Below, piece after piece: positions 2,851-48,957 of a DNA stretch of 48,963 nucleotides. Source of the DNA: an uncultured Alphaproteobacteria bacterium (lineage in GTDB: Bacteria > Pseudomonadota > Alphaproteobacteria > Rs-D84); contig CAMZDE010000002.1 in the NCBI GenBank assembly GCA_947305255.1, forward strand, positions 1 to 48,963. The letters are read 5' to 3'. Under the pieces are notes generated by a model. That model was not told the DNA's origin and searched no databases. It saw only the letters and a list, made by a program, of their open reading frames with translations. Made by a program: the position numbers and the translations under genes. The number at the start of each line of letters is the position of its first letter. Position 1 is the stretch's first letter.

Positions 2851-2967
2851 GCCAGTTCGACAAAATAGCAGTTGAGAACGAGTGAAACGCAGTTCGAAAC
2901 GTTGCGATTTGGAAAGGGGCCCACGAACGCAGTGAAGTGGGAATATACAATCTGGTCGCCCGCCCCA
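2851..2967. repeat. T-arm-bracketed module H1 (split copy of the tRNA-His T-arm and 3' end around an ~88-nt GC-rich insert)
   Basis: GCCAGTTCGA (identical to 2754-2763 of tRNA-His), then the insert, then AATCTGGTCGCCCGCCCCA (2949-2967, a 19/19 match to tRNA-His 2763-2781). Confidence 0.6.
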
Positions 2968-3041
2968 TAAAATTCAACTCCACCAAAACGGTGGGGTTAA
3001 ATTTTATCAAGACGTGCGACCTGATTCTAGAAATGGTGGAC

Positions 3042-3138
3042 CGCCAGTTCGACCCGCAGGCGAGAGGCAGACGGAAGTATGCCGGTGAGCAAAGCGAACG
3101 AGCCAAGGGAGTGGAGCATAGCGAAACAATCTGGTCGC
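3042..3138. repeat. T-arm-bracketed module H2 (second split tRNA-His T-arm copy; its insert shares a core with the tRNA-Lys locus)
   Basis: CGCCAGTTCGA, then CCGCAGGCGAGAGGCAGACG...GCAAAGCGAACGAGCCAAGGGAG..., then AATCTGGTCGC. The insert core recurs at 26693-26755. Confidence 0.6.
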
Positions 3139-4047: not shown

Positions 4048-4587
4048 ATGAACACAAAACGAATCATATCAATTGCAATAATGTTTACGTTGCCAGTAAT
4101 GGCACACGCGGAAAACATATCGGGGGCGATGTATACTGCGCCGGCGCACGCGGATACGAATCACCCCGCACCAACGACACAAGCGAATGCATCGTATGGC
4201 CGTATTAATATAGATACCGCTGACCAAGAACATATCGCCACCACCGCATATGTTAAGGGTGCCTATAACAGCGCAATTGCGGCGGTGAATAAAGTTGCTG
4301 TGGGTGTGGGTGAAAAACAGGATGTTTTGACTACTGCTAGTGATGAGTCAATCCAACCCTTTGTGATTGATGAAGCATATATGCTTGACATATTGCAGGC
4401 CATTAATGATATAGACATGTTTGGGGAGGCTATATCCACATATGATGATATGTTAATCACGGCAAAAGGGGCGGCCGCAGGAATAACAGGTTACGTGAAT
4501 TCCAAAGGTGTTGAAATTTATACTACGTGGGACGATGATGAGGCGACGACCGATGTAGCATTAAAAACCGTCTTGCCCGATGATTAA
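4048..4587 (+). CDS. Secreted protein, paralog family member A (conserved N- and C-termini, variable centre)
   Basis: Signal peptide MNTKRIISIAIMFTLPVMAHA. Shares ENISGAMYTAP..DTNHPAPTT..YGR.NID..DQ.HIATTAYVKGAYNSAIAAVN and a C-terminal IYTTWDDD..ATT motif with 14268-14792 and 25528-26157. Confidence 0.75.
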   Translation: MNTKRIISIAIMFTLPVMAHAENISGAMYTAPAHADTNHPAPTTQANASYGRINIDTADQEHIATTAYVKGAYNSAIAAVNKVAVGVGEKQDVLTTASDESIQPFVIDEAYMLDILQAINDIDMFGEAISTYDDMLITAKGAAAGITGYVNSKGVEIYTTWDDDEATTDVALKTVLPDD

Positions 4588-25318: not shown

Positions 25319-25502
25319 GTCAGAAAGAATATTTTCTGATGGGGTGTAACGACCCGTGTCGAACTGCGTCAGGGATGACGTAAAATTTCTCCAACATATG
25401 GTTGGAGGGTTGCCGAATATATAGAATAAGGCACACAATTTCAGTTCGAATTGTCGTTAACCTCCAACCACCCGATTCTTTTTCTGGTGGTTGTTCGTTG
25501 TT
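25319..25502 (+). promoter_or_regulatory. Structured leader, copy D
   Basis: Promoter TTGAAT-17-TAATCA, then GTCAGAAA.../TTTCTGA, P3 CGTCA/TGACG, P4 CTCCAAC/GTTGGAG. GGTTGGAGG is complementary to CCTCCAACC. Terminator CCAACCACC/GGTGGTTG plus a T-rich tail. Confidence 0.65.
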
Positions 25503-25527
25503 AAAACCAACAGAAGGAGAGGAAACT

Positions 25528-26157
25528 ATGACAACAAAATCAATATTATTTGCGATACTTGCAACATTGCCATTTGTCGCACGTGCAGAAAATATATCAG
25601 GGGCAATGTATATCGCGCCGTCCGTGGCAGATAACAATCATCCCGCGCCAACAACAAACGCAAACGCACCGTATGGTCGTGTGAATATTGATGTCGCCGA
25701 CCAAGACCATATCGCCACAACTGCGTATGTCAAAGGTGCGTATAATAGTGCGATTGCAGCGGTGAATACATCAATTGATGAAGCAGTATCAGAAACAATT
25801 CGTGTTCTTGAACAACAAGGGTTATATGATAAACAAGATAAATTATTAAATGCCGATGGTGACGAAATATTACAAGATGTAACATCTGGTTCGCAAATAG
25901 ATTCGGAGATTGGTAATAGTCTTGTAAATTTGTACGACGATGATGAATACGAAGCGTTTAGAGATGATATTATTAATGGTTATGGTTTTGAACCTGATAC
26001 TAGTTTAATGACAGCTGGTGCAATATTTGACACAATACATTATGTAAATAAACATCTTGTTGACGCCATAGGCGAAAAACGTGTCACAATATACACAACC
26101 TGGGACGATGATAGTGCAAACGCCACGACGCAGGTATCTTTGACAAGCGCAAATTAA
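25528..26157 (+). CDS. Secreted protein, paralog family member D (longest central insert)
   Basis: Start at MTTKSILFAILATLPFVARA, behind the RBS AGGAGAGG. Conserved N-terminal block and C-terminal RVTIYTTWDDDSANATT. Confidence 0.75.
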   Translation: MTTKSILFAILATLPFVARAENISGAMYIAPSVADNNHPAPTTNANAPYGRVNIDVADQDHIATTAYVKGAYNSAIAAVNTSIDEAVSETIRVLEQQGLYDKQDKLLNADGDEILQDVTSGSQIDSEIGNSLVNLYDDDEYEAFRDDIINGYGFEPDTSLMTAGAIFDTIHYVNKHLVDAIGEKRVTIYTTWDDDSANATTQVSLTSAN

Positions 26158-26422: not shown

Positions 26423-26498
26423 GGAGACATAGCTCAGTTGGTAGAGCAAATGACTTTTAATCATTGGGTCCAGGGTTCGAATCCCTGTGTCTCCACCA
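26423..26498 (+). tRNA. tRNA-Lys (anticodon TTT)
   Basis: Acceptor GGAGACA/TGTCTCC, anticodon loop CTTTTAA, T-arm CAGGG-TTCGAAT-CCCTG, encoded CCA. Confidence 0.9.
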
Positions 26499-26540
26499 AA
26501 AATTTATCCCCCGTGAAAACGGGGGATAAATTTTTGGTGG
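26493..26540 (+). other. 20-bp perfect hairpin that includes the last 6 nt (CCACCA) of tRNA-Lys
   Basis: CCACCAAAAATTTATCCCCC-gtgaaaac-GGGGGATAAATTTTTGGTGG. Confidence 0.7.
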
Positions 26541-26577
26541 ACATGGTTTGATTTGAATGCGTCGCAACAAGGTTGCC

Positions 26578-26820
26578 AAGGGTTCGACAACAAGTAGATT
26601 TTGCAAGTAAATCGTGGCAAAATCGTCACGGTTGCCCCGCAGCCGGCACTTTGTGCCGTGCGAGGGAATCCCTGTTCGAACCCGAAGAAAGGGTTCGACC
26701 CGCAGGCGAAAGGCAGACGTTCGTCGGCCGGTTCGCAAAGCGAATGAACCAAGGGGAATGAAGCGAAGCAAAATCGTCACGGTTGCCCCGCAGGTACAAA
26801 GTGTCGAGAAAATCCCTGTG
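26578..26820. repeat. T-arm-bracketed modules at tRNA-Lys (L0/L1) with a 151-nt tandem periodicity
   Basis: AGGGTTCGAC...insert...AATCCCTGT occurs twice. The 25-mer CAAAATCGTCACGGTTGCCCCGCAG is present at 26618-26642 and 26769-26793. The core GTTCGACCCGCAGGCGAAAGGCAGACG is shared with 3048-3072. Confidence 0.6.
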
Positions 26821-26849
26821 GAACCTGAAATAGTGGCTTTGCGTGTCGC

Positions 26850-27107
26850 TTATTTTTTATCTTTGTCTTCGCCAGTGTCGTCGCTGGTCACAAATTTAAA
26901 GAAATCTTGTGGTTTTGCCCCAGTTGCGGCCAATATTTTCGCGATGCTGTTCGTTGACGGCCATCGTGGTTGTCCAAATACAGTCTTACGTTTGCTTTTG
27001 TTAAAGGTTGTCGGATCTAACCCGCTAAGTTTTGCCAATCCAGAGCAAGACATTCCGTGTTCACGAGCAAATAATTCAATCGCATGCCATATTTGATGAT
27101 GTGTCAT
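26850..27107 (-). CDS. HTH DNA-binding protein, equivalent to only the N-terminal domain of phage/S24-type repressors
   Basis: HQIWHAIELFAREHGMSCSGLAKLSGLDPTTFNKSKRKT..PRWPSTNSIAKIL matches the HTH domain that precedes the S24 peptidase domain in alphaproteobacterial repressors. Here it is followed only by an acidic tail. RBS AGGGGGA. Confidence 0.65.
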   Translation of the reverse strand: MTHHQIWHAIELFAREHGMSCSGLAKLSGLDPTTFNKSKRKTVFGQPRWPSTNSIAKILAATGAKPQDFFKFVTSDDTGEDKDKK

Positions 27108-27369: not shown

Positions 27370-27744
27370 TTATCTTATGCGTTTGATTTCCATACCGACA
27401 ACGTGTTCACGGTTCAATTCTTCGCGCGATACAAATTTGGTAATAATGTTCATCAATTCATCAATGTTTTGAAATCCAGAACGCTTAATATCGATTTTTT
27501 TAAACAAATTCTCAAAATCAGGCGCAACATGCATATTTAAAACTTCGCAGATAATATATTCGTCTGTGTTTTCAGCATCAAACAGTAAAAATTTGTCGCC
27601 AATTTTAACTTTTTTGCGTTTGTCGTCGTACGCGCGTAATTCAATGTCTTTTTGCCCAGATTTTATCATTTCAAAATATTTGTGCCGAACACTCATAGTG
27701 AACTGATACGTAATGTCAGATTGAATGTTTTTATCTTTTGTCAT
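27370..27744 (-). CDS. ASCH (PUA-like) domain protein
   Basis: 124 aa. KYFEMIKSGQKDIELRAYDDKRKKVKIGDKFLLF is the typical ASCH N-terminal beta-barrel pattern. Confidence 0.7.
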   Translation of the reverse strand: MTKDKNIQSDITYQFTMSVRHKYFEMIKSGQKDIELRAYDDKRKKVKIGDKFLLFDAENTDEYIICEVLNMHVAPDFENLFKKIDIKRSGFQNIDELMNIITKFVSREELNREHVVGMEIKRIR

Positions 27745-41806: not shown

Positions 41807-41854
41807 TCGTGGCTCGGGCAACTGGACTCGAACCAGTGACATACGGATTAACAG
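41807..41854 (-). repeat. att direct repeat: displaced 3' half of tRNA-Asn (anticodon loop to CCA plus 3 nt), with its own terminator at 41783-41806
   Basis: 48/48 identity with 48879-48926. Confidence 0.85.
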
Positions 41855-42182
41855 CAACGGCCAGATAATAAAATATAAGACACCACAACAAAATTTAACA
41901 CTTCAATCAACAGGTTATGTTTTATCAAATTTTAACAATTTTTATAAATTATTATTTGATAAATCCCTCTGGTGTCCCACAGAAATAGTTTATTCTTTGT
42001 GTTAGTCCTTTGGTTCTTGTTTTGTGATGCCAAACGGATTGTTGGGCATCGGTTCGTTTCCTTGATTAAAATTATACATCCATTGTTTTATAAAAACAAC
42101 TTTAAAAAAAGCATTCTTTTTTGTGGCACCAGTTTTTTAATCTGACATCTATGGGGGGTGGGGGAACACCACAGAAACAAGT

Positions 42183-43901
42183 TTATACTTGAATGAAAAA
42201 TGTGATATTAAAACTGTCTATGCGTTCAGGATATGATGAAAATTCTTTGTTTGTGAATTCAAAATGGTCATTGTTGTATTTATTTTTGGGTGTAAATTGA
42301 ATATCTGACGGTGACAAGTGTGTTGCACCAGTCAAATATGATGCACGGACACCCCAAGCGGCTTTACTGTCTTTTAAATTGTTAATGATATATTGCATAC
42401 CGATACCATATCTGAAAACTGCTTTGTCATTATTGGAAACATTATGCCCATTTGTAGTAGTGCTACCATCGGCAGATATGTGAAACACACCAAGTGTCCC
42501 GATACCAAATACAGATAATTTTCTGCCAATGTTTATACCAAGATTTGAATATAACAACTCATAATACTCTGTGGCTATTTCAGCAGAATGATGGCTTGTG
42601 TGCAAATTATAAGTTGAATCAAAATTCATTTTGGCTTTTTGTAAAGATAGATAATTGAATTGTGCACCAGCCCCTAAATACAAGTATTTCAATTTGTATG
42701 ACAAGCCCAAATCAAGGTTAAAACCAGCATTTTTTTGTCCAAAACTTACGCCTGCACCCAATAAGATATTTTTTGTTGAGGTCGGATATTTTGAAAATTC
42801 TAATTCTTGGCTTGGATAATAAGTTGTTTCACCCCCATTTATTCTTAAACTTTTTTCTATGTCAAAAAATCCGGCTTTTGAAAATACCAAATCTTGTTTT
42901 TTATCTGGGGACAATTCGCCTGTGGTGTTGCCTGTGACGGCTTTGCCATTAACAGATATTTCAACACCAGGATTGCGCACCTTAAAGGCACTGAAATCAA
43001 TCTTGCCGGGCAATTTTTCCATATTAAACATATATTCTGATTCTGAATATTTAGAAAAAGATACTGTTCGTGTAATATCAACGGCTTCCGAATTCTTTGC
43101 GGTTATCTTTTGTTCTATGCCAAATTGTGCATTAAAATTAACAGGTTCTTTACCATAATCCACGTCGTTAATAAAGATTCTGGAATCACCCAAAGACGTT
43201 CGAATTTTTATGTTCTTTGTCCCACGTTTAAGTGTTTTTGATATTTTACCATTCGTTGGGACAATCAAAGTTTCATTGACGTCAGAATAATTTTCTTTGG
43301 TTATTTCAAGTGTGTGTTTTCCATTGCAAACATTGCCAAATTTAATTGGGGATTCGCCTTGATATTTTCCATTGTCTATCGTCACAAATGCTTTTGCTGG
43401 TGTTGTTATAATTTCAACAGGTGCACCTTTGCAGGTTGTGTCGCCAACACTTTCATTGAAAACAACCGTTAAAGCAGATTTTGGCAATTTTTCCAATCTT
43501 TGTTTTTCTTGTTTGAATTCTTTTTGTGAATACCTATACTGAACACAACCAACCCAACCACCAGATTCTTTGCTAACGTCACTTTTTTGGCGTTCAAGAC
43601 CTTTTAATGAAATTGTCCCAATAGACCTTTCATAAGAACGAGTTGTGCCTGCACTGGTGGTTGTATCAGAATAAAATTCAGATTGCACATTCAATGCTGT
43701 GCCAAATAAACGACCGATTTGATTATCTATGTCACGTTCTGCTTTGTTTGCGGCATCTGCTGCGCTGGTTTCTGAATATGATTTCGCAACCAAATATTTA
43801 TATGTCGCATCATCTGGTGGTGTGGTTGTTGCCCAATCGCACCCTGCAAACGAATTACCAGATAAAAAGATGCCCAAACAAAATATAGCAGAACGTTTCA
43901 T
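42183..43901 (-). CDS. Lipoprotein with PEGA-like repeats and a C-terminal beta-barrel-like domain
   Basis: Lipobox SFAGC at residue 20. Three segments resemble PEGA domains (e.g. AKAFVTIDNGKYQGESPIKFGNVCNGKHTLEITKENY). The C-terminal ~200 aa have alternating G/Y/hydrophobic strands. Confidence 0.6.
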   Translation of the reverse strand: MKRSAIFCLGIFLSGNSFAGCDWATTTPPDDATYKYLVAKSYSETSAADAANKAERDIDNQIGRLFGTALNVQSEFYSDTTTSAGTTRSYERSIGTISLKGLERQKSDVSKESGGWVGCVQYRYSQKEFKQEKQRLEKLPKSALTVVFNESVGDTTCKGAPVEIITTPAKAFVTIDNGKYQGESPIKFGNVCNGKHTLEITKENYSDVNETLIVPTNGKISKTLKRGTKNIKIRTSLGDSRIFINDVDYGKEPVNFNAQFGIEQKITAKNSEAVDITRTVSFSKYSESEYMFNMEKLPGKIDFSAFKVRNPGVEISVNGKAVTGNTTGELSPDKKQDLVFSKAGFFDIEKSLRINGGETTYYPSQELEFSKYPTSTKNILLGAGVSFGQKNAGFNLDLGLSYKLKYLYLGAGAQFNYLSLQKAKMNFDSTYNLHTSHHSAEIATEYYELLYSNLGINIGRKLSVFGIGTLGVFHISADGSTTTNGHNVSNNDKAVFRYGIGMQYIINNLKDSKAAWGVRASYLTGATHLSPSDIQFTPKNKYNNDHFEFTNKEFSSYPERIDSFNITFFIQV

Positions 43902-43921
43902 AATTGCCCCCCTGATGCGTT

Positions 43922-44521
43922 TTATTCGTTCACAATGGTATATTGTTCATTTACCATTAAATCCCATTGCTGGGCGGCTTTTTTCTTTAAATCTTCGGAA
44001 ATGCCTTTGTTCTTATTTAATGTGCGTTCTATCGCTTGTTTAAGGTCGCTTTCGCTTATTTTTACACGTGCATATATTGAATAAAACATTTCTTTGTCTT
44101 CTTCGGCATTAACAGTGCTTAAAACCTTTTCCCAATAACGGTCGCTAACAATCGCTTTTGACATCAGTGCCTTTGCTGATTCTGTGCTGACAAATTGAAC
44201 CTGGTTAGCATCATAAGACGTGCCTTCTTCGGCATTTTGGAACATATATGTTAAATTTTGGTTTATTGCGCTGGCAATGGAATTTTTTGCATTGTTTTCT
44301 GCTATTCTATACCCCATAGAAACATTTGCCTTTTCAGCAGGAATACGTGCTTGCCCCAAGAAATACAAATCTGAACCTTTCTTGGTTAATGGGGTGCTTT
44401 CTTTTACCCACGATGGACGTGAAGATAAATTGTCACTGCGTTGTATAACTTTATCTGACATACCGCCACCACAGGCAGCCAAAATCAAAGACATAGATGT
44501 TGCAAATACGAATTTTTTCAT
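43922..44521 (-). CDS. Lipoprotein, LPP20-like
   Basis: Lipobox LAAC (MKKFVFATSMSLILAACGG). YFLGQARIP...MGYRIAENNAKNSIASAI resembles the LPP20 family; the N-terminus of the downstream gene has a similar block. Confidence 0.55.
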   Translation of the reverse strand: MKKFVFATSMSLILAACGGGMSDKVIQRSDNLSSRPSWVKESTPLTKKGSDLYFLGQARIPAEKANVSMGYRIAENNAKNSIASAINQNLTYMFQNAEEGTSYDANQVQFVSTESAKALMSKAIVSDRYWEKVLSTVNAEEDKEMFYSIYARVKISESDLKQAIERTLNKNKGISEDLKKKAAQQWDLMVNEQYTIVNE

Positions 44522-45013
44522 AATGTTATCCTTTTGTGTAAAAATGAAGACCGCCCAGAAAGAAAGGGCGGTCGGGAGCTCAAAAATCAGTATGTTATTG
44601 ACTCTGTTGCTTTCGGGTTGCCCCTGTTTTATGACAACAAACTCCCGACCATAAGTCAGGAATTATTACGATGCAAAAACACCGCAATATCAACTTCACG
44701 ATGCTTTCGCACCGAACATACTGGGCTTTTGAAACCCAACCGGTCTTTCTAACCAGTCCTTTATATTTTACAACAAGCAAACAAATTTTTCAACCAGCAA
44801 AGTGATATTTTCCCTTTGGGGATATATTGTGTGTATATAGGGGGTGGGGGTGGCCAGTGAATAGTGGAGTGATTGGTTAATAAAGCATACGGTGTAAAGG
44901 GTTGTATAAAGGGGTGATGTATAGGGTGGTTATATTGCTGTGCTGTGTCCACAGGTTAATGTCCGTCCATCCGTCTTTTTATAAATAAAAAGGACGGACG
45001 GACAGACGTGGGT

Positions 45014-46051
45014 TTAATCGGGGAACATTGACTCGTTCAAATCTTCCAAGTCAATTACCTTTGGTTCTGGCTCGGCAGGGACAGATTCTTGCGCTGGTTC
45101 AGTTTTTAATTGCTTGGCAAGTTCACCAACCGTTGATTTGCTGATGCCAGTTTCTGATTCTATATCCCTGTATGATTTGCCTTGGGACAGCAAATTGCCA
45201 ACCATTTCAAGTTTTTTTGCTTTTTCTGCTTCTCTTTTGGTTTGGTCGGCTGTGTCAGTTACTTTGAATTCCGACCAAGACACAAACCCTTTATCGCCAA
45301 CGGTTTCCAATTGAAAGCCGATAGGTTTAAGAATAGAACCTGCAACATTACGTGATTTTTGATACTTCATAACGAACTTTGCACCATCGGTTACATTGTA
45401 TGATACTGGTTTTTCCAATGATACCACGGCATCCATAATGTCTTGTTTTTTACTGGTTCCACGATTGCCGTGTTCGGGGTCTTTGCCCGAATGGTCAATC
45501 AGCAAAACAGATTTGCCACGACGTTTCAAGTCAATTAACCATCTTTGCATTGGTGTCCAACTTTCTGCTTCGTTTTCCCTGCCAAACGAACACAATGCAG
45601 AAAGGTTATCTATGATTATAAGTTCACAATCACCCAGCAGTGCGGTTATTTGTTCTTGGCCTTTTTCATAACCTATATTTGGCAACGGTTTTTCTGACAG
45701 GTCATTGGATAGAATTTTGAACCTATCAAACGTGTCGGGGTTGCACAAGTCCATTCCAAATCCCAAATTGGTTATTCTGTCTTGGAAATCTTTGCCTGTC
45801 ATTTCCCCGTCAATGTATAATACAGAACGGTTTTTTTTGACGGTGAAATTAAACACATTTTTTCCACTTGCGATGGCCATTCCTAATGTCATTGCAAAAT
45901 ATGTTTTTCCAATACCACGTTGGGCATACAATATGGTCAAGGATTTTTCCTGAATGAACGGATATGCAATCCATTCACGTTCTGGAATTTTCATTTCCAG
46001 CAGGTTACGCAGTGAAACCACTGAATATTGTGGGGTGTTATTGTCTGCCAT
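45014..46051 (-). CDS. AAA_25/RepA-like P-loop ATPase with a C-terminal HTH
   Basis: Walker A AQRGIGKT, Walker B LIIIDNLS, RecA/DnaB-like core, and a C-terminal SYRDIESETGISKSTVGELAK. Confidence 0.78.
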   Translation of the reverse strand: MADNNTPQYSVVSLRNLLEMKIPEREWIAYPFIQEKSLTILYAQRGIGKTYFAMTLGMAIASGKNVFNFTVKKNRSVLYIDGEMTGKDFQDRITNLGFGMDLCNPDTFDRFKILSNDLSEKPLPNIGYEKGQEQITALLGDCELIIIDNLSALCSFGRENEAESWTPMQRWLIDLKRRGKSVLLIDHSGKDPEHGNRGTSKKQDIMDAVVSLEKPVSYNVTDGAKFVMKYQKSRNVAGSILKPIGFQLETVGDKGFVSWSEFKVTDTADQTKREAEKAKKLEMVGNLLSQGKSYRDIESETGISKSTVGELAKQLKTEPAQESVPAEPEPKVIDLEDLNESMFPD

Positions 46052-46197
46052 TTTGCACCCCCTTTGTTACATACCACGTGTTGGATTGCGGGAAATACAA
46101 CTGAACAAGGCCAGAATTAACTTGTAAAATTGGCTGTTCCAGATTATAATCATACGTGAAGCAAGTGGTGCCATTCGTTAATGCGATGGCACCCCAT

Positions 46198-46425
46198 TTA
46201 TTGTTTATCATTGTTCACCCCCTTTGGTTGAGGATTTGATTCCAACCAATCGAAAAACTTGGGAACGTTGATTAACAGTTTGCGACCAAGGGTGCAGACA
46301 GCACCACTGGATACCAAACCATTCGTGTTTCTGAAAAACAGAAGATTACGCAATCCGCCCATTTTGAAAGCGGGATTATTTGCAACGAATTGTTGCGGTG
46401 TTTGAAGCATATTATTGTCAAACAT
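46198..46425 (-). CDS. Excisionase/AlpA-like small DNA-binding protein (tentative)
   Basis: 75 aa. The ...LGRKLLINVPKFFDWLES ending resembles the GR..f....l..WL tail of excisionase-type HTH proteins. Its position is typical for an island. Confidence 0.4.
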   Translation of the reverse strand: MFDNNMLQTPQQFVANNPAFKMGGLRNLLFFRNTNGLVSSGAVCTLGRKLLINVPKFFDWLESNPQPKGVNNDKQ

Positions 46426-46578
46426 ACTTTTACTCCTTATGTTAATTGTTTTTACAGATTTTCATAATCTGTTATTGAACATATAAGGAATAACAAGTTT
46501 GGTTACGATTCCAGACCGATTGTCTGATTTTGCTTTTGTAATCAGCAGAAATCAAGGATTGTTATAAAAAATGTGTTT

Positions 46579-47472
46579 TTACGAATTTTTCCAAAAATCA
46601 CGAATTCGTTTCAGATTATGTTTGTTATTGAAATATGTTATAAACGCATTTATTTGTCTGCGGGACAAACCAAAATCTTTATTCAGGTCAGATTTTATGT
46701 CAGCAGTTCTTGTGTATTGTTTGCCAGATATTTCAAGATGTTCTGCAACAAAATCAAATCCAATATTATCCCTGTTTGCCAATCCACACAAATGCTTGTT
46801 ATGGAATTGAAGCACAGATTTAAATGCGGAAGTGATTGCGAAGTTGTCGCATTTACAAGTGGTTTTTCTAATGCCAAGAATATACGGAACAAGAAAGAAT
46901 ATAACCGCTGTGAAAATTTCATCTGGATATGCACCAAATGCGCTGAAAAAACTTGGTCGCATAAACAGGGCTGTTTCAAATGGAATATAATGCGATGGTT
47001 TGTATGGGTCTTCGGTCTTTCTGGAACTCACGACACGTTGTGCATAAGTGTTAGGGCCAAATTTTATCTTTCTTCTCTCATAGTTTGCATTTTGATGGGC
47101 TCGGGCATTTGCCAAATGTTCGGCAGGGGCCTTTTGTTTGTAAAATTCAATAAAAGCACGTTCCAAATACCAAGGAAATAGATTAACGCATATATTTTGG
47201 TGCTCTTCACTGGGAATATATTTTTCAATTATTTCAAGACCTATTTTTATCAGTTTGTTCAATCTGATTAACTGTGTTTTGGTTATATTGGAATAATCAA
47301 AGTTTGGGAATAAATACCCACCAAGTTTGTTCAATATTTCGGCATAACTGCATTTTTTCCTGGGATACAAATAAGAAAATGTCGGCATCAAATGGGTTTT
47401 GACATTATATCCAACCTGATTTTGAAAATCACTTTTTCTTAATGGTAAAAACTTGAATGGAATGGTGTTCAT
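46579..47472 (-). CDS. Hypothetical island protein (297 aa)
   Basis: Long ORF whose start overlaps the integrase stop (ATGA). No recognised motif. Confidence 0.5.
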   Translation of the reverse strand: MNTIPFKFLPLRKSDFQNQVGYNVKTHLMPTFSYLYPRKKCSYAEILNKLGGYLFPNFDYSNITKTQLIRLNKLIKIGLEIIEKYIPSEEHQNICVNLFPWYLERAFIEFYKQKAPAEHLANARAHQNANYERRKIKFGPNTYAQRVVSSRKTEDPYKPSHYIPFETALFMRPSFFSAFGAYPDEIFTAVIFFLVPYILGIRKTTCKCDNFAITSAFKSVLQFHNKHLCGLANRDNIGFDFVAEHLEISGKQYTRTADIKSDLNKDFGLSRRQINAFITYFNNKHNLKRIRDFWKNS

Positions 47473-48545
47473 TGTTCTGTTTCCCCAAATATTTTGTTGG
47501 CCATTGTTTCCACAATGGTTTGTGAATGTTCATCGGATAGGTGTGCATACCTTTTTGTCATTTGCAAGGTCTTGTGGCCCAAAATAGCGGCAATTTCAGC
47601 CATTGAATAACCGTTCATAGCCAGATACGATGCACAGGTGTGTCGCAAATCGTGAAAATGGAAATTTTCAAGACCAGCATCTGCCATTGCTTTATACCAA
47701 CTGCGCTGGATATCAAATGGCTTGGTGCCATCGTGGCTTGGAAACACATAAACGTCATTTGGTCTGCGGCTGGCATATAATTTATGCAATTCTGCCAGTG
47801 CAGGCCCAGCCAATGGCATATAACGTCTTTCACCATTCTTGGTGTCTTGCAATATTGCACGTCCAGCATTCAAATCAACATCCTGCCATTTTAACGACAT
47901 TATTTCCATTCGTCTGGCCCCTGTGGTTATGCCAATTAACACAGCAGGGTGCAGATAAGGGTTGTTTGCTTTCTTGGTTTCAGCAAGCAAATTTTCACGT
48001 TCTGCATCAGTTAAATAACGCACGCGGCCACGTGGTTCAGATAATTTGGATATCTTGATTACAGGGTTGTTTTCTAACCATTCCAATTCACGCACTGCAT
48101 ATGACAGCATAACAGATAATGCAGCCATATAGCGGTTAATTGTTGCATTGCTTTTTTTCTTTTGCAATCTGGCATCTTTTGATTCTGCGATTTGATTGCG
48201 TGCTTGAATCAGCAAGGATGGTGTCAAACTGGATAAAGCATATTGTCCCAGCACGGATTTCCACATTCTGATATGTCTGATGGTGTCAACAGATGCTTTT
48301 TTAGGGTTGGCCTGCAAATGTTTTTCATACAGGTCAGCCAATTCAGCCACAGTGTGCTTTTGCGATTCTATAACTGAAAAATTCGCACCCTGCAACATTC
48401 TGGCTTCGGTCATCTTGGCCCAAGTTTCAGCAGCGGTCTTGGTTGGGAATGTTTTTGATACTTTGGGATAACCAAATACGCAAACCCTTGCACGATAACT
48501 GACTTTATTTGTTTTCTTTGATGGTCGTTTTTCTATTGTCGCCAT
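47469..48545 (-). CDS. Tyrosine site-specific integrase
   Basis: Start at MATIEKR, behind the RBS AAGGAAAG. Catalytic ARRMEI (R), HDLRHTCAS (HxxR) and LGHKTLQMTKRYAHL (Y). Adjacent to tRNA-Asn. Confidence 0.9.
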   Translation of the reverse strand: MATIEKRPSKKTNKVSYRARVCVFGYPKVSKTFPTKTAAETWAKMTEARMLQGANFSVIESQKHTVAELADLYEKHLQANPKKASVDTIRHIRMWKSVLGQYALSSLTPSLLIQARNQIAESKDARLQKKKSNATINRYMAALSVMLSYAVRELEWLENNPVIKISKLSEPRGRVRYLTDAERENLLAETKKANNPYLHPAVLIGITTGARRMEIMSLKWQDVDLNAGRAILQDTKNGERRYMPLAGPALAELHKLYASRRPNDVYVFPSHDGTKPFDIQRSWYKAMADAGLENFHFHDLRHTCASYLAMNGYSMAEIAAILGHKTLQMTKRYAHLSDEHSQTIVETMANKIFGETEQ

Positions 48546-48878
48546 TTTTTCTTTCCTTTGTGTTTGTCTGACTAACAGGGTCAAACAATGTCTTTCAATT
48601 CTGCTTCGCTTCGTCTTGTTTTTCTGACAATAAGAATCACAATCCGTCTGTCAATATAGTGCAACAACGCAGAATTTCAAGGGTTATTGTGTGTCCCATT
48701 TAATTCTTGGGACACTGGTGGGATTTGGAAAACAAAACTTGCCGCAAATCCGATGGTTTTGTGCGCTGGTTGAATGTGAATTATGTTGTGAATTTTTATA
48801 TTCGTTTATCTGGTGTGTCCCAAATGTGTCCCAAACACATAAATAAAAAAAGCGGGAATCTGCTGAATCCCGCTAAAT

Positions 48879-48926
48879 TCGTGGCTCGGGCAACTGGACT
48901 CGAACCAGTGACATACGGATTAACAG
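48879..48926 (-). repeat. att direct repeat (within the intact tRNA-Asn)
   Basis: 48/48 identity with 41807-41854. Confidence 0.85.
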
Positions 48927-48957
48927 TCCGTTGTTCTACCGACTGAACTATGCCCGA
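48882..48957 (-). tRNA. tRNA-Asn (anticodon GTT)
   Basis: Minus-strand cloverleaf: acceptor TCGGGCA/TGCCCGA, anticodon loop CTGTTAA, T-arm ACTGG-TTCGAGT-CCAGT, discriminator G, CCA. Terminator at 48848-48878. Confidence 0.9.

Follow-up and report, generated by a model that had tools for sequence, protein, structure and literature searches.

Tandem units framed by tRNA T arms behind tRNA genes of uncultured gut Alphaproteobacteria: a candidate divergent family of RtT-like elements

No settled function has emerged for the small RNA rtT, which has been known from Escherichia coli since 1991 and regarded as a peculiarity of the tRNA-Tyr operons of enterobacteria. Bösl and Kersten, in that year, reportedly described its release from the tyrT transcript by processing, and are said to have suggested an effect on the stringent response. 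In the tyrT-tyrV operon of E. coli K-12, three 178-nt repeats that follow tyrV have the same build as the spacer that separates the two genes. Each of these segments reads ...GGGGAAGG(A/G)TGAGAA(G/C)CTTCGAC(C/T)AAGGTTCGA(C/T)-core-(T)AATCCTTCCCCCACCACCA, a frame that can be shortened to GGGGAAGGATGAGAAGCTTCGACCAAGGTTCGAC-core-AATCCTTCCCCCACCACCA, and the annotated rttR RNA, which begins 7 nt after tyrV, has its end exactly at the CCA of repeat one. The Rfam family RtT (RF00391), employed here as a control, scores 134-137 bits on these repeats, and the outer helix of its consensus corresponds to the pairing between an upstream inverted arm and the tRNA-like segment, or bracket, that closes the repeat on its 3' side. 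The subject of the present work is an array found in a stretch of 48,963 nt from an uncultured Alphaproteobacteria bacterium (contig CAMZDE010000002.1 of assembly GCA_947305255.1; the whole stretch is hereafter called the window), in which two bracketed units lie directly 3' of a tRNA-Lys gene. The best explanation for these units, and for their counterparts in related genomes, is that they form a divergent family of RtT-like, tRNA-linked structured RNA units, a reading to which an even chance is given.

The tRNA-Lys(TTT) gene occupies 26423-26498 of the + strand, on which all features of this array are read (ARAGORN; 78 bits with the Rfam tRNA model), and its T arm, CAGGG-TTCGAAT-CCCTG (CCAGGGTTCGAATCCCTG), is the source of the brackets. 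It runs into a terminator-type palindrome (26492-26541) whose 23-nt arms are 100% complementary and include the 3' end of the tRNA, TCCACCA. The units that follow were delimited by repeat searches, word counts, comparison of copies and direct reading of the sequence. Unit 1 (26578-26675) is preceded by an upstream arm (26536-26561; GGTGGACATGGTTTGATTTGAATGCG), which repeats the tRNA 3' end and T loop in inverted, degenerate form and is also found in relatives, and by a small hairpin, GCAAC-aag-GTTGC (26564-26576), which precedes type B units in other genomes as well. Its 5' bracket, AAGGGTTCGA (26578-26588), consists of the T-stem 5' strand and T-loop positions 54-58 followed by C; its core, of type B (26589-26666), comprises, according to alignment A2, helix P1 (26597-26604 with 26617-26624), the conserved stretch AATCGTCACGGTTGCCCCGCAG and helix P2 (26644-26649 with 26653-26658); and its 3' bracket, AATCCCTGT (26667-26675), consists of T-loop positions 59-60 and the T-stem 3' strand, being a shortened form of a bracket that in relatives extends to CCA and a terminator. 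Unit 2 (26689-26820) is introduced by a perfect hairpin, H1 (TCGAACCC-gaagaaa-GGGTTCGA, 26676-26698), in which an inverted T-arm half pairs with the 5' bracket. There follow the 5' two thirds of a type A core (26699-26765), with CCGCAGGCGAAAGGCAGACG, hairpin Pa, hairpin Pb (TTCGC-aaa-GCGAA) and GAACCAAGGGGAATGAAGCGAAGC, and, fused to it, the 3' third of a type B core (26761-26810), made up of a 33-nt repeat of 26610-26642 and a P2-like hairpin. The 3' bracket, AATCCCTGTG, stops after 10 nt (26811-26820), and a predicted terminator-like hairpin with a T run (26832-26860, +) closes the array.

Both units open with AAGGGTTCGAC (at 26578 and 26689) and close with AATCCCTGT, and the words involved are far more frequent than chance would allow: AGGGTTCGAC occurs in the window at 26579 and 26690 only (two found vs 0.03 expected), and AATCCCTGT at 26480, which is tRNA-Lys itself, 26667 and 26811 (three vs 0.37). 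An exact 25-mer present at 26618 and 26769 has no other site in the window, even when 3 mismatches are allowed, and grows to a 33-nt segment (26610-26642 and 26761-26793; 91% identity) spaced by 151 nt. The core word GTTCGACCCGCAGGCGARAGGCAGACG is unique to 3047, where the exact match covers 3047-3073, and 26693 (0 occurrences expected), and the core A of unit 2 is common to the tRNA-His locus (3047-3127). A first-pass annotation, made from the letters alone, had described two bracketed units at this site, brackets drawn from both halves of the tRNA-Lys T arm, a core shared with the His locus, the repeated 25-mer with its spacing and the joining hairpin, and each of these observations is borne out. 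Its description of the array as a 151-nt tandem is not: Tandem Repeats Finder reports no array at the Lys locus, even at a score of 30, the two units carry different cores, and what they have in common is the brackets and the 33-nt segment, which alone gives the spacing. Unit 1 is of type B. Unit 2 joins the 5' two thirds of core A to the 3' third of core B and is therefore chimeric. The junctions between tRNA and unit 1 and between units 1 and 2 are both spanned by contigs of an independent DNA run. This layout suggests that the array of the window is a rearranged, partly decayed example. At the tRNA-Lys locus of a related species (L042, 1-650), three complete units (B, a new type F and a cut B) each end in AATCTCTGTGCCTCCACCA and the same terminator, and the comparison of sequences indicates that this is probably how the shortened array once looked.

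A sister array in the same window is headed by tRNA-His(GTG) (2705-2781, +; ARAGORN), and was analyzed by the same repeat search and by comparison of cores. Its first unit (2840-2967, +) carries a core of type C between a 5' bracket, CCAGTTCGAC, and a full 3' bracket, AATCTGGTCGCCCGCCCCA; it is preceded by an inverted T arm, GATTCGAACTGGC, and followed by a terminator at 2967-3007. The second unit (3015-3138, +) consists of an arm, GACCTGATTCTAGAAATGG, a 5' bracket, CGCCAGTTCGAC, core A and a shortened 3' bracket, AATCTGGTCGC. Unit 1 is missing from an otherwise near-identical locus (L035), the window having one unit more at tRNA-His. The spacer that leads from tRNA-Ala to tRNA-His (2560-2704) holds a conserved tRNA-linked motif of another kind, a hairpin, GAATTTTCA...TGAAAATTC, followed by agtgccgcgccgtagca, which recurs in arrays of other genomes (L001, L002, L021 and L047).

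The distribution of these units extends well beyond the window. A scan of GTDB, with one genome per species and 20 fixed bases of the shared core A as query, returned 26 loci, two of which (L015 and L020) were discarded as chance matches in GC-rich DNA. The 24 real loci, together with 29 from a metagenome scan, amount to 53 further loci with core A, all of them from uncultured gut or rumen Alphaproteobacteria (Candidatus Enterousia and unnamed metagenome-assembled genomes), and the window sequence itself is present in gut and bovine-gut DNA runs. The first-pass annotation had allowed that its proposal would fall if further copies did not exist or if the similarity were confined to tRNA-derived segments; the additional loci dispose of both, the cores being shared as well. 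Wherever the upstream sequence is covered, core A follows a same-strand tRNA gene at a distance of ~80 nt; the gene may be that of His, Arg(ACG), Pro(TGG), Ser(CGA, TGA, GGA) or Met. These arrays also contain core B, in this case after the tRNAs Lys, Arg, Pro, Ser and Met. With the further types C, found in His unit 1 of the window, and F, found in L042, at least four cores (A, B, C and F), plus elements D and E, follow at least eight different tRNAs.

The T arm is always split after T-loop position 58 (TTCGA|C...core...A|ATC). On the 5' side of core A stand the T-stem 5' strand of the local tRNA and TTCGA (TCCGA at tRNA-Met, matching that tRNA), and on the 3' side AATC leads into the 3' strands of T stem and acceptor; the 3' bracket is identical to the last 19 nt of the tRNA (19/19), with a terminator after it, in at least 14 of 40 units, the others being shortened to various degrees. 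In tRNA-His, tRNA-Pro and tRNA-Arg the T stem contains a G.T wobble pair, and its G is retained in the 5' bracket, which is therefore a copy of the tRNA strand and not the complement of the 3' bracket. The T stem of tRNA-Lys in L042 reads AGAG/CTCT, not AGGG/CCCT, and this change is followed in every bracket and inverted arm of the three units there. Some arrays display further elaborations. In four loci (L018, ~1680-1730, L021, L038 and L043), the acceptor-strand part of 3' brackets is broken by small hairpin insertions, such as GGTCA-tcacactttgttaaaacttcgtgtgataa-ACCCGCCCCA. Elements D and E were seen in L004 (2440-2560, -), L008, L012, L013, L022 (1260-1340), L026 and L038: in D, an inverted tRNA 3' end leads to a CAGAG-hairpin-CATG motif, then to an AT-rich stretch that holds a -10-like box, and finally to ...gaggagg with a tRNA 3' end; E reads ...tgtataatttcagttcgcgaaccgct...CGACCA. 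Both resemble outward promoters preceding another copy of a tRNA 3' end, and in L038 a D element immediately precedes core A.

The region 5' of each 5' bracket has a constant order. First comes an arm in which T loop, T stem and acceptor 3' strand are repeated imperfectly and in inverted orientation, then a short purine-rich loop; the arm prolongs the palindrome of the preceding terminator. Its inverted T-loop part is either GATTCGAAC or GATGAGAAC, and the 13 occurrences of GATGAGAAC in 60 loci all fall inside a unit arm (13/13); the arms of the window carry TGTTCGAAC or GATTTGAAT at the place taken elsewhere by the GATGAGAAC form. The 5' arms are not alignable across tRNA types, and their match to the local tRNA was followed through pairing energies. 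The helix between arm and 3' bracket (H0) has -12.9 kcal/mol with the unit's own tRNA vs -8.9 kcal/mol with other tRNAs (-6.9 when shuffled), the own tRNA being better in 36 of 46 units, and the hairpin on the 5' bracket (H1) favors the own tRNA in 41 of 46.

The cores, for their part, suggest structured RNA. Among 32 copies of core A, drawn from different species and tRNAs, 49 columns are invariant, and these persist while the adjoining terminators have diverged. Hairpin Pa of this core has a G-N-N-A loop, with six variants; Pb pairs TTCGC, TTTGC or TGAGC with GCGAA or GCAAA; and the Pc position is filled by GCGAAGC, by a long perfect hairpin, by a third kind of hairpin, or by nothing. In core B, the eight base pairs of helix P1 are maintained in 88 of 88 cells, with compensatory change at four of the eight pairs, U.G present and A.C absent, a degree of covariation matched by none of 500 shuffles, and the sequence of the second hairpin, P2, varies freely. 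The whole array of the window folds with z scores of -3.7 on the + strand and -2.8 on the - strand. Rfam, searched at the gathering score and at E<=10 with the window, L003 and 18 loci, returned tRNAs and terminator noise only, with no ribozyme, transfer-messenger RNA (tmRNA) or other curated family, and ARAGORN detected no tmRNA in the window. Readings by eye as a hammerhead (GAUGAG...CGA), a hepatitis delta virus-like ribozyme, a K-turn or a tmRNA tag were rejected, since essential positions are absent or indels break the frame, and the pairing of the core GGGA with the T-stem 3' strand proposed by RNAalifold (alignment A1) was dropped, being unsupported by the His units. A tmRNA also uses a T arm and an acceptor 3' strand with CCA as the frame for another RNA, but in it the insert separates the acceptor 5' strand from the T arm and the acceptor stem is full, whereas the units described here have no conserved reading frame.

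Set beside the E. coli repeats, the units present three of the features by which RtT membership was judged, namely a same-strand site behind a tRNA, a close formed by the tRNA 3' end, and a T-stem strand with TTCGAC accompanied by a complementary arm; the covariance model and the primary sequence of the core do not support membership. In both settings they lie directly 3' of a tRNA gene, on its strand and in tandem; the unit ends in AATCC and the tRNA 3' end to CCA, and the T-stem 5' strand and TTCGAC precede the core; and the upstream inverted arm (GGGGAAGGATGAGAA...), which in E. coli carries the motif GGATGAGAA, pairs with the 3' bracket. The core is GA-rich in each case, and in its 3' part (the last 30 nt of core A) CCGAAGGGCGA(A/G)GCGCG.AGCG...AATCC compares with CCAAGGGAGTGAAGCGAAGCGAAACAATCC. 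The differences are that the units described here occur in Alphaproteobacteria and not in Enterobacteria, that they follow eight or more tRNA species as against tRNA-Tyr, and that they have several cores, with a terminator after the tRNA and after each complete unit. The units are thus regarded as the same kind of element as RtT, and probably as a distant relative of it, but lie outside RF00391. The first-pass annotation had recognized that a family exists, and had overlooked this known anatomy of tyrT and rtT. A pseudouridine-mapping preprint that cites the rtT papers offered nothing usable on a T-loop-like site.

In the RtT-like reading, a complete unit consists, in order, of the inverted arm (often with GATGAGAAC replacing GATTCGAAC), the purine-rich loop, the T-stem 5' strand with TTCGA, a structured core of about 80-100 nt that opens with C, and a 3' bracket in which AATC is continued by the 3' strands of T stem and acceptor as far as CCA, with an intrinsic terminator ending complete units of relatives. 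By analogy with rtT RNA of E. coli, such a unit would be transcribed on the tRNA strand, with transcripts starting either at the tRNA promoter, by read-through, or at promoter-like elements within the arrays, and its tRNA-identical 3' segment would, as for rttR, lead to a tRNA-type 3' end. The comparisons support homologous recombination and gene conversion between the repeated tRNA 3' ends as the processes by which units are probably gained and lost, brackets stay matched to the neighboring tRNA and chimeras arise. With regard to transcription, metatranscriptome contigs cover A units at a depth of 2.5-6, vs about 1000 for tRNA pieces, and one of these contigs, which are undirected, links tRNA-Lys to the start of an A unit.

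Several observations weigh against this reading. The RtT covariance model (gathering threshold 45 bits) has no hit in the window or in 18 related loci, nor does it yield one in short stretches searched at E<=10; a comparison of A units with E. coli by nhmmer yields 9.5 bits (E 3.4, not significant), and a hidden Markov model (HMM) of the E. coli units, run against all loci, has its best matches in A units of L007 and L046 (E 5.2-5.7, not significant). These weak matches do fall on units in both directions. Because the HMM searches give only E values of about 3-6, the homology with RtT rests on architecture and short motifs, not on statistics. The helices of core A are nearly invariant, which leaves almost no covariation to be seen. 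Mismatches in the arm helix lack a preference for G.U over A.C (2 vs 12, and 27 vs 30), so that the arms are possibly a DNA palindrome as well as an RNA helix, and may be the relic of a palindrome at the DNA level rather than a selected RNA helix. At the tRNA-Lys locus of the window the units have no CCA and no terminator between them, and their 3' brackets measure only 9-10 nt. A strong-looking terminator stands between each tRNA and its unit, no convincing promoter was found in front of the units, and the metatranscriptome contigs are of low depth and could stem from contaminating DNA. Confidence in RtT-like RNA units is held down by this terminator, the missing promoter, the thin RNA evidence and the strand symmetry of the arms, and it is on account of the same weak points that two readings at the DNA level, integration scars and an element homing into T loops, stay alive.

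Evidence that bears on both comes from the turnover of the arrays. Synteny of the genes that precede the tRNAs shows the loci to be orthologous, and clustering of all open reading frames (ORFs) of the loci recovered only these syntenic housekeeping genes, with no recurrent recombinase, transposase, Rep or integrase. Core A diverges by 8.7% between genomes at the same tRNA, by 11% between different tRNAs of one genome (n=5 pairs) and by 11.3% between different tRNAs of different genomes; same-tRNA copies of different genomes are slightly closer, there is no sign of recent spread or homogenization within a genome, and copies of the His locus share substitutions across genomes. No copy was found away from a tRNA array, and a same-strand T arm without core was not found outside tRNA genes in 39 loci, the T arm being always interrupted by a core. 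Related tRNA-Arg loci have the orders A-B-A, A-B and A-D. Taken together, these patterns suggest that the units are resident and not recently mobile, and that the gain and loss of units, as well as the chimera, may be well enough explained by homologous recombination between repeated tRNA 3' ends. Where the first-pass annotation argued for target-dependent copying or insertion rather than random duplication, its second half stands, in that a family exists whose cores are shared and whose locus-specific brackets derive from the tRNA; an active process is unsupported, because the loci are orthologous and there is no recent spread, no recombinase, no copy off the tRNA arrays and no empty target.

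One of the two DNA-level readings, which is considered improbable, regards the units as scars or landing pads of integrative elements: the tRNA 3' ends would be remnants of attR type, left by integrase crossover in the T loop, and the cores would be conserved att-arm sequences or decoy attB sites. The T loop is reportedly among the sublocations at which integrases cross over, as described by Williams in 2002. Integration also yields duplicated tRNA 3' ends and terminators, and islands do sit between tRNA and units or between units, with the far junction at a copy of the tRNA 3' end (L004, L022, L043, L044 and L045). In this the units resemble the attL/attR repeats of islands that use the T loop or anticodon loop of tRNA genes, which are likewise duplicated tRNA 3' segments downstream of the gene, with islands adjoining; the units differ in that they lack an integrase, have a 5' T-stem half and an inverted arm, and carry their core within the T loop. 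The window offers a direct comparison, since its one real integrase island (41810-48957), at tRNA-Asn (48882-48957, -), with a tyrosine integrase (47469-48584), an AAA_25 protein (45014-46051) and a PEGA-domain protein (42183-43901), has at its far end (about 41810-41860) a plain 48-nt direct repeat that runs from the anticodon loop to CCA and contains no core. The units, by contrast, do not form an uninterrupted tRNA 3' direct repeat bounding integrase DNA, no integrase recurs near them, and an att site split by an 85-nt insert would be unworkable as the core of a tyrosine recombinase. No core is found among the 2.9 million viral contigs of IMG/VR, where core A gave four chance matches in GC-rich coding DNA and core B none, and blastn against phage records returned tRNA matches only. 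Two further points argue against scars: from one species or tRNA to another the cores stay conserved and structured, and the E. coli counterpart yields a stable RNA.

A similarly small chance is left to a non-autonomous mobile element that homes into T loops, be it akin to a miniature inverted-repeat transposable element (MITE) or a folded single-strand attP in the manner of the CTX phage or integron attC. Folded on both brackets, the inverted arm would recreate the tRNA gene's duplex, and the core would bulge out of it where crossover takes place. This proposal would account for the same cores at eight or more tRNAs with the precise junction TTCGA|C...A|ATC, for a complementarity between arm and brackets that is specific for the own tRNA and strand-symmetric, and for the presence or absence of one unit between near-identical loci; in addition, the GCGAAGC of the core is a sequence that forms a very stable DNA mini-hairpin. 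CTX phage attP(+) and integron attC offer parallels in inverted arms able to mimic a duplex target, in a kept structure with variable sequence and in tandem accumulation at one site, but no recombinase, phage or cassette genes accompany the units, viral contigs contain none of them, and the bulge would be of 80-100 nt. No transposase or Rep gene is linked to the units, there is neither a copy outside a tRNA array nor an empty target, copies lack homogeneity within a genome, and a unit of ~190 nt is too small for an autonomous circle. Hairpins whose structure is kept while their sequence is free fit poorly with ends recognized by a transposase; the constant terminal hairpins and many unrelated sites of an IS200/IS605-type or other MITE are not seen, and IS200/IS605-type ends were rejected on the grounds that the hairpins covary in sequence. 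REPINs, Rickettsia palindromic elements and Correia elements are also short, hairpin-forming, multi-copy and intergenic, but have fixed ends and are scattered over the genome, whereas the units occur only in tRNA arrays and have ends copied from the local tRNA.

It is very unlikely that the units are genes for a small arginine-rich, Tpr-like peptide read through the unit. The E. coli tpr gene starts at an ATG within GGATGAGAA, its product being MRSFDQGSTRAP..., Arg-type units encode MRTRPEGSTRRRK... in the same frame, and a basic ORF (26614-27096, +) passes through the units of the window. Against this, most units have GATTCGAAC or other variants with no ATG, indels of one and two nt in hairpin loops shift the frame, the Lys copy contains a stop, no usable ribosome-binding spacing is present, and the shared residues follow from conserved nucleotides. 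Arginine-rich ORFs through units, which include, besides that of the window, one in L003 (5305-5380), are most likely a by-product of those nucleotides; in arms that read GGATGAGAAC, the ATG opens MRTRPEGSTRRRK.... Chance similarity or an insignificant one-off local duplication, to which the incomplete and rearranged Lys units of the window might point, has next to no probability, having already been refuted by the 53 further loci, the invariant core columns and the zero chance matches expected.

The surroundings of the two arrays merit a brief description. Beyond the Lys array lies an ORF of the opposite strand (26850-27107, -) for an 85-residue Cro/C1-type helix-turn-helix protein, which the first-pass annotation took for a truncated phage-type repressor; it has its own start and stop and a complete HTH_26 domain, and may or may not be truncated. 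It matches the repressor family PHROG 2328 weakly (E 0.007, profile positions 22-86 of 128) and has no match in NCBIfam or the PDB. A 124-residue ASCH-domain protein (27370-27744, -) is encoded between this ORF and cysS. Adjoining cysS, the segment 29987-33538 contains in a row two radical SAM/SPASM proteins, a 254-residue ORF without assignment and a class I methyltransferase, and looks like a peptide-maturation cluster, with no precursor peptide identified in it. Finally, two paralogous secreted proteins with no Pfam match (25402-26157 and 4048-4587), one beside each tRNA array, have in common the stretch ENISGAMY.AP..HPAPTT..YGR.NID.ADQ.HIATTAYVKGAYNSAIA.

The same architecture is thus encountered in distant uncultured gut Alphaproteobacteria, behind at least eight tRNAs and with several interchangeable cores, which suggests that the architecture itself matters and not a particular sequence, its elements being the split of the T arm after position 58, the inverted arm, and the tRNA 3' end with CCA. 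The units represent a conserved intergenic class that current RNA annotation misses and that may be mistaken for tRNA fragments or integration scars, and the comparative set of more than 50 loci provides a basis for covariance models, structure probing and processing experiments. A broader and distinctly speculative idea is that RtT-type units are an old general device of Gamma- and Alphaproteobacteria, in which the T arm and 3' strand of a tRNA would serve as the frame for an exchangeable structured RNA cargo placed after T-loop position 58, the frame being re-copied from the local tRNA gene. If true, this would imply either a dedicated, T-loop-directed process of templated insertion or gene conversion, or CCA-ended RNAs that mimic tRNA and act on tRNA-sensing machinery, much as rtT RNA was once suggested to act on the stringent response.

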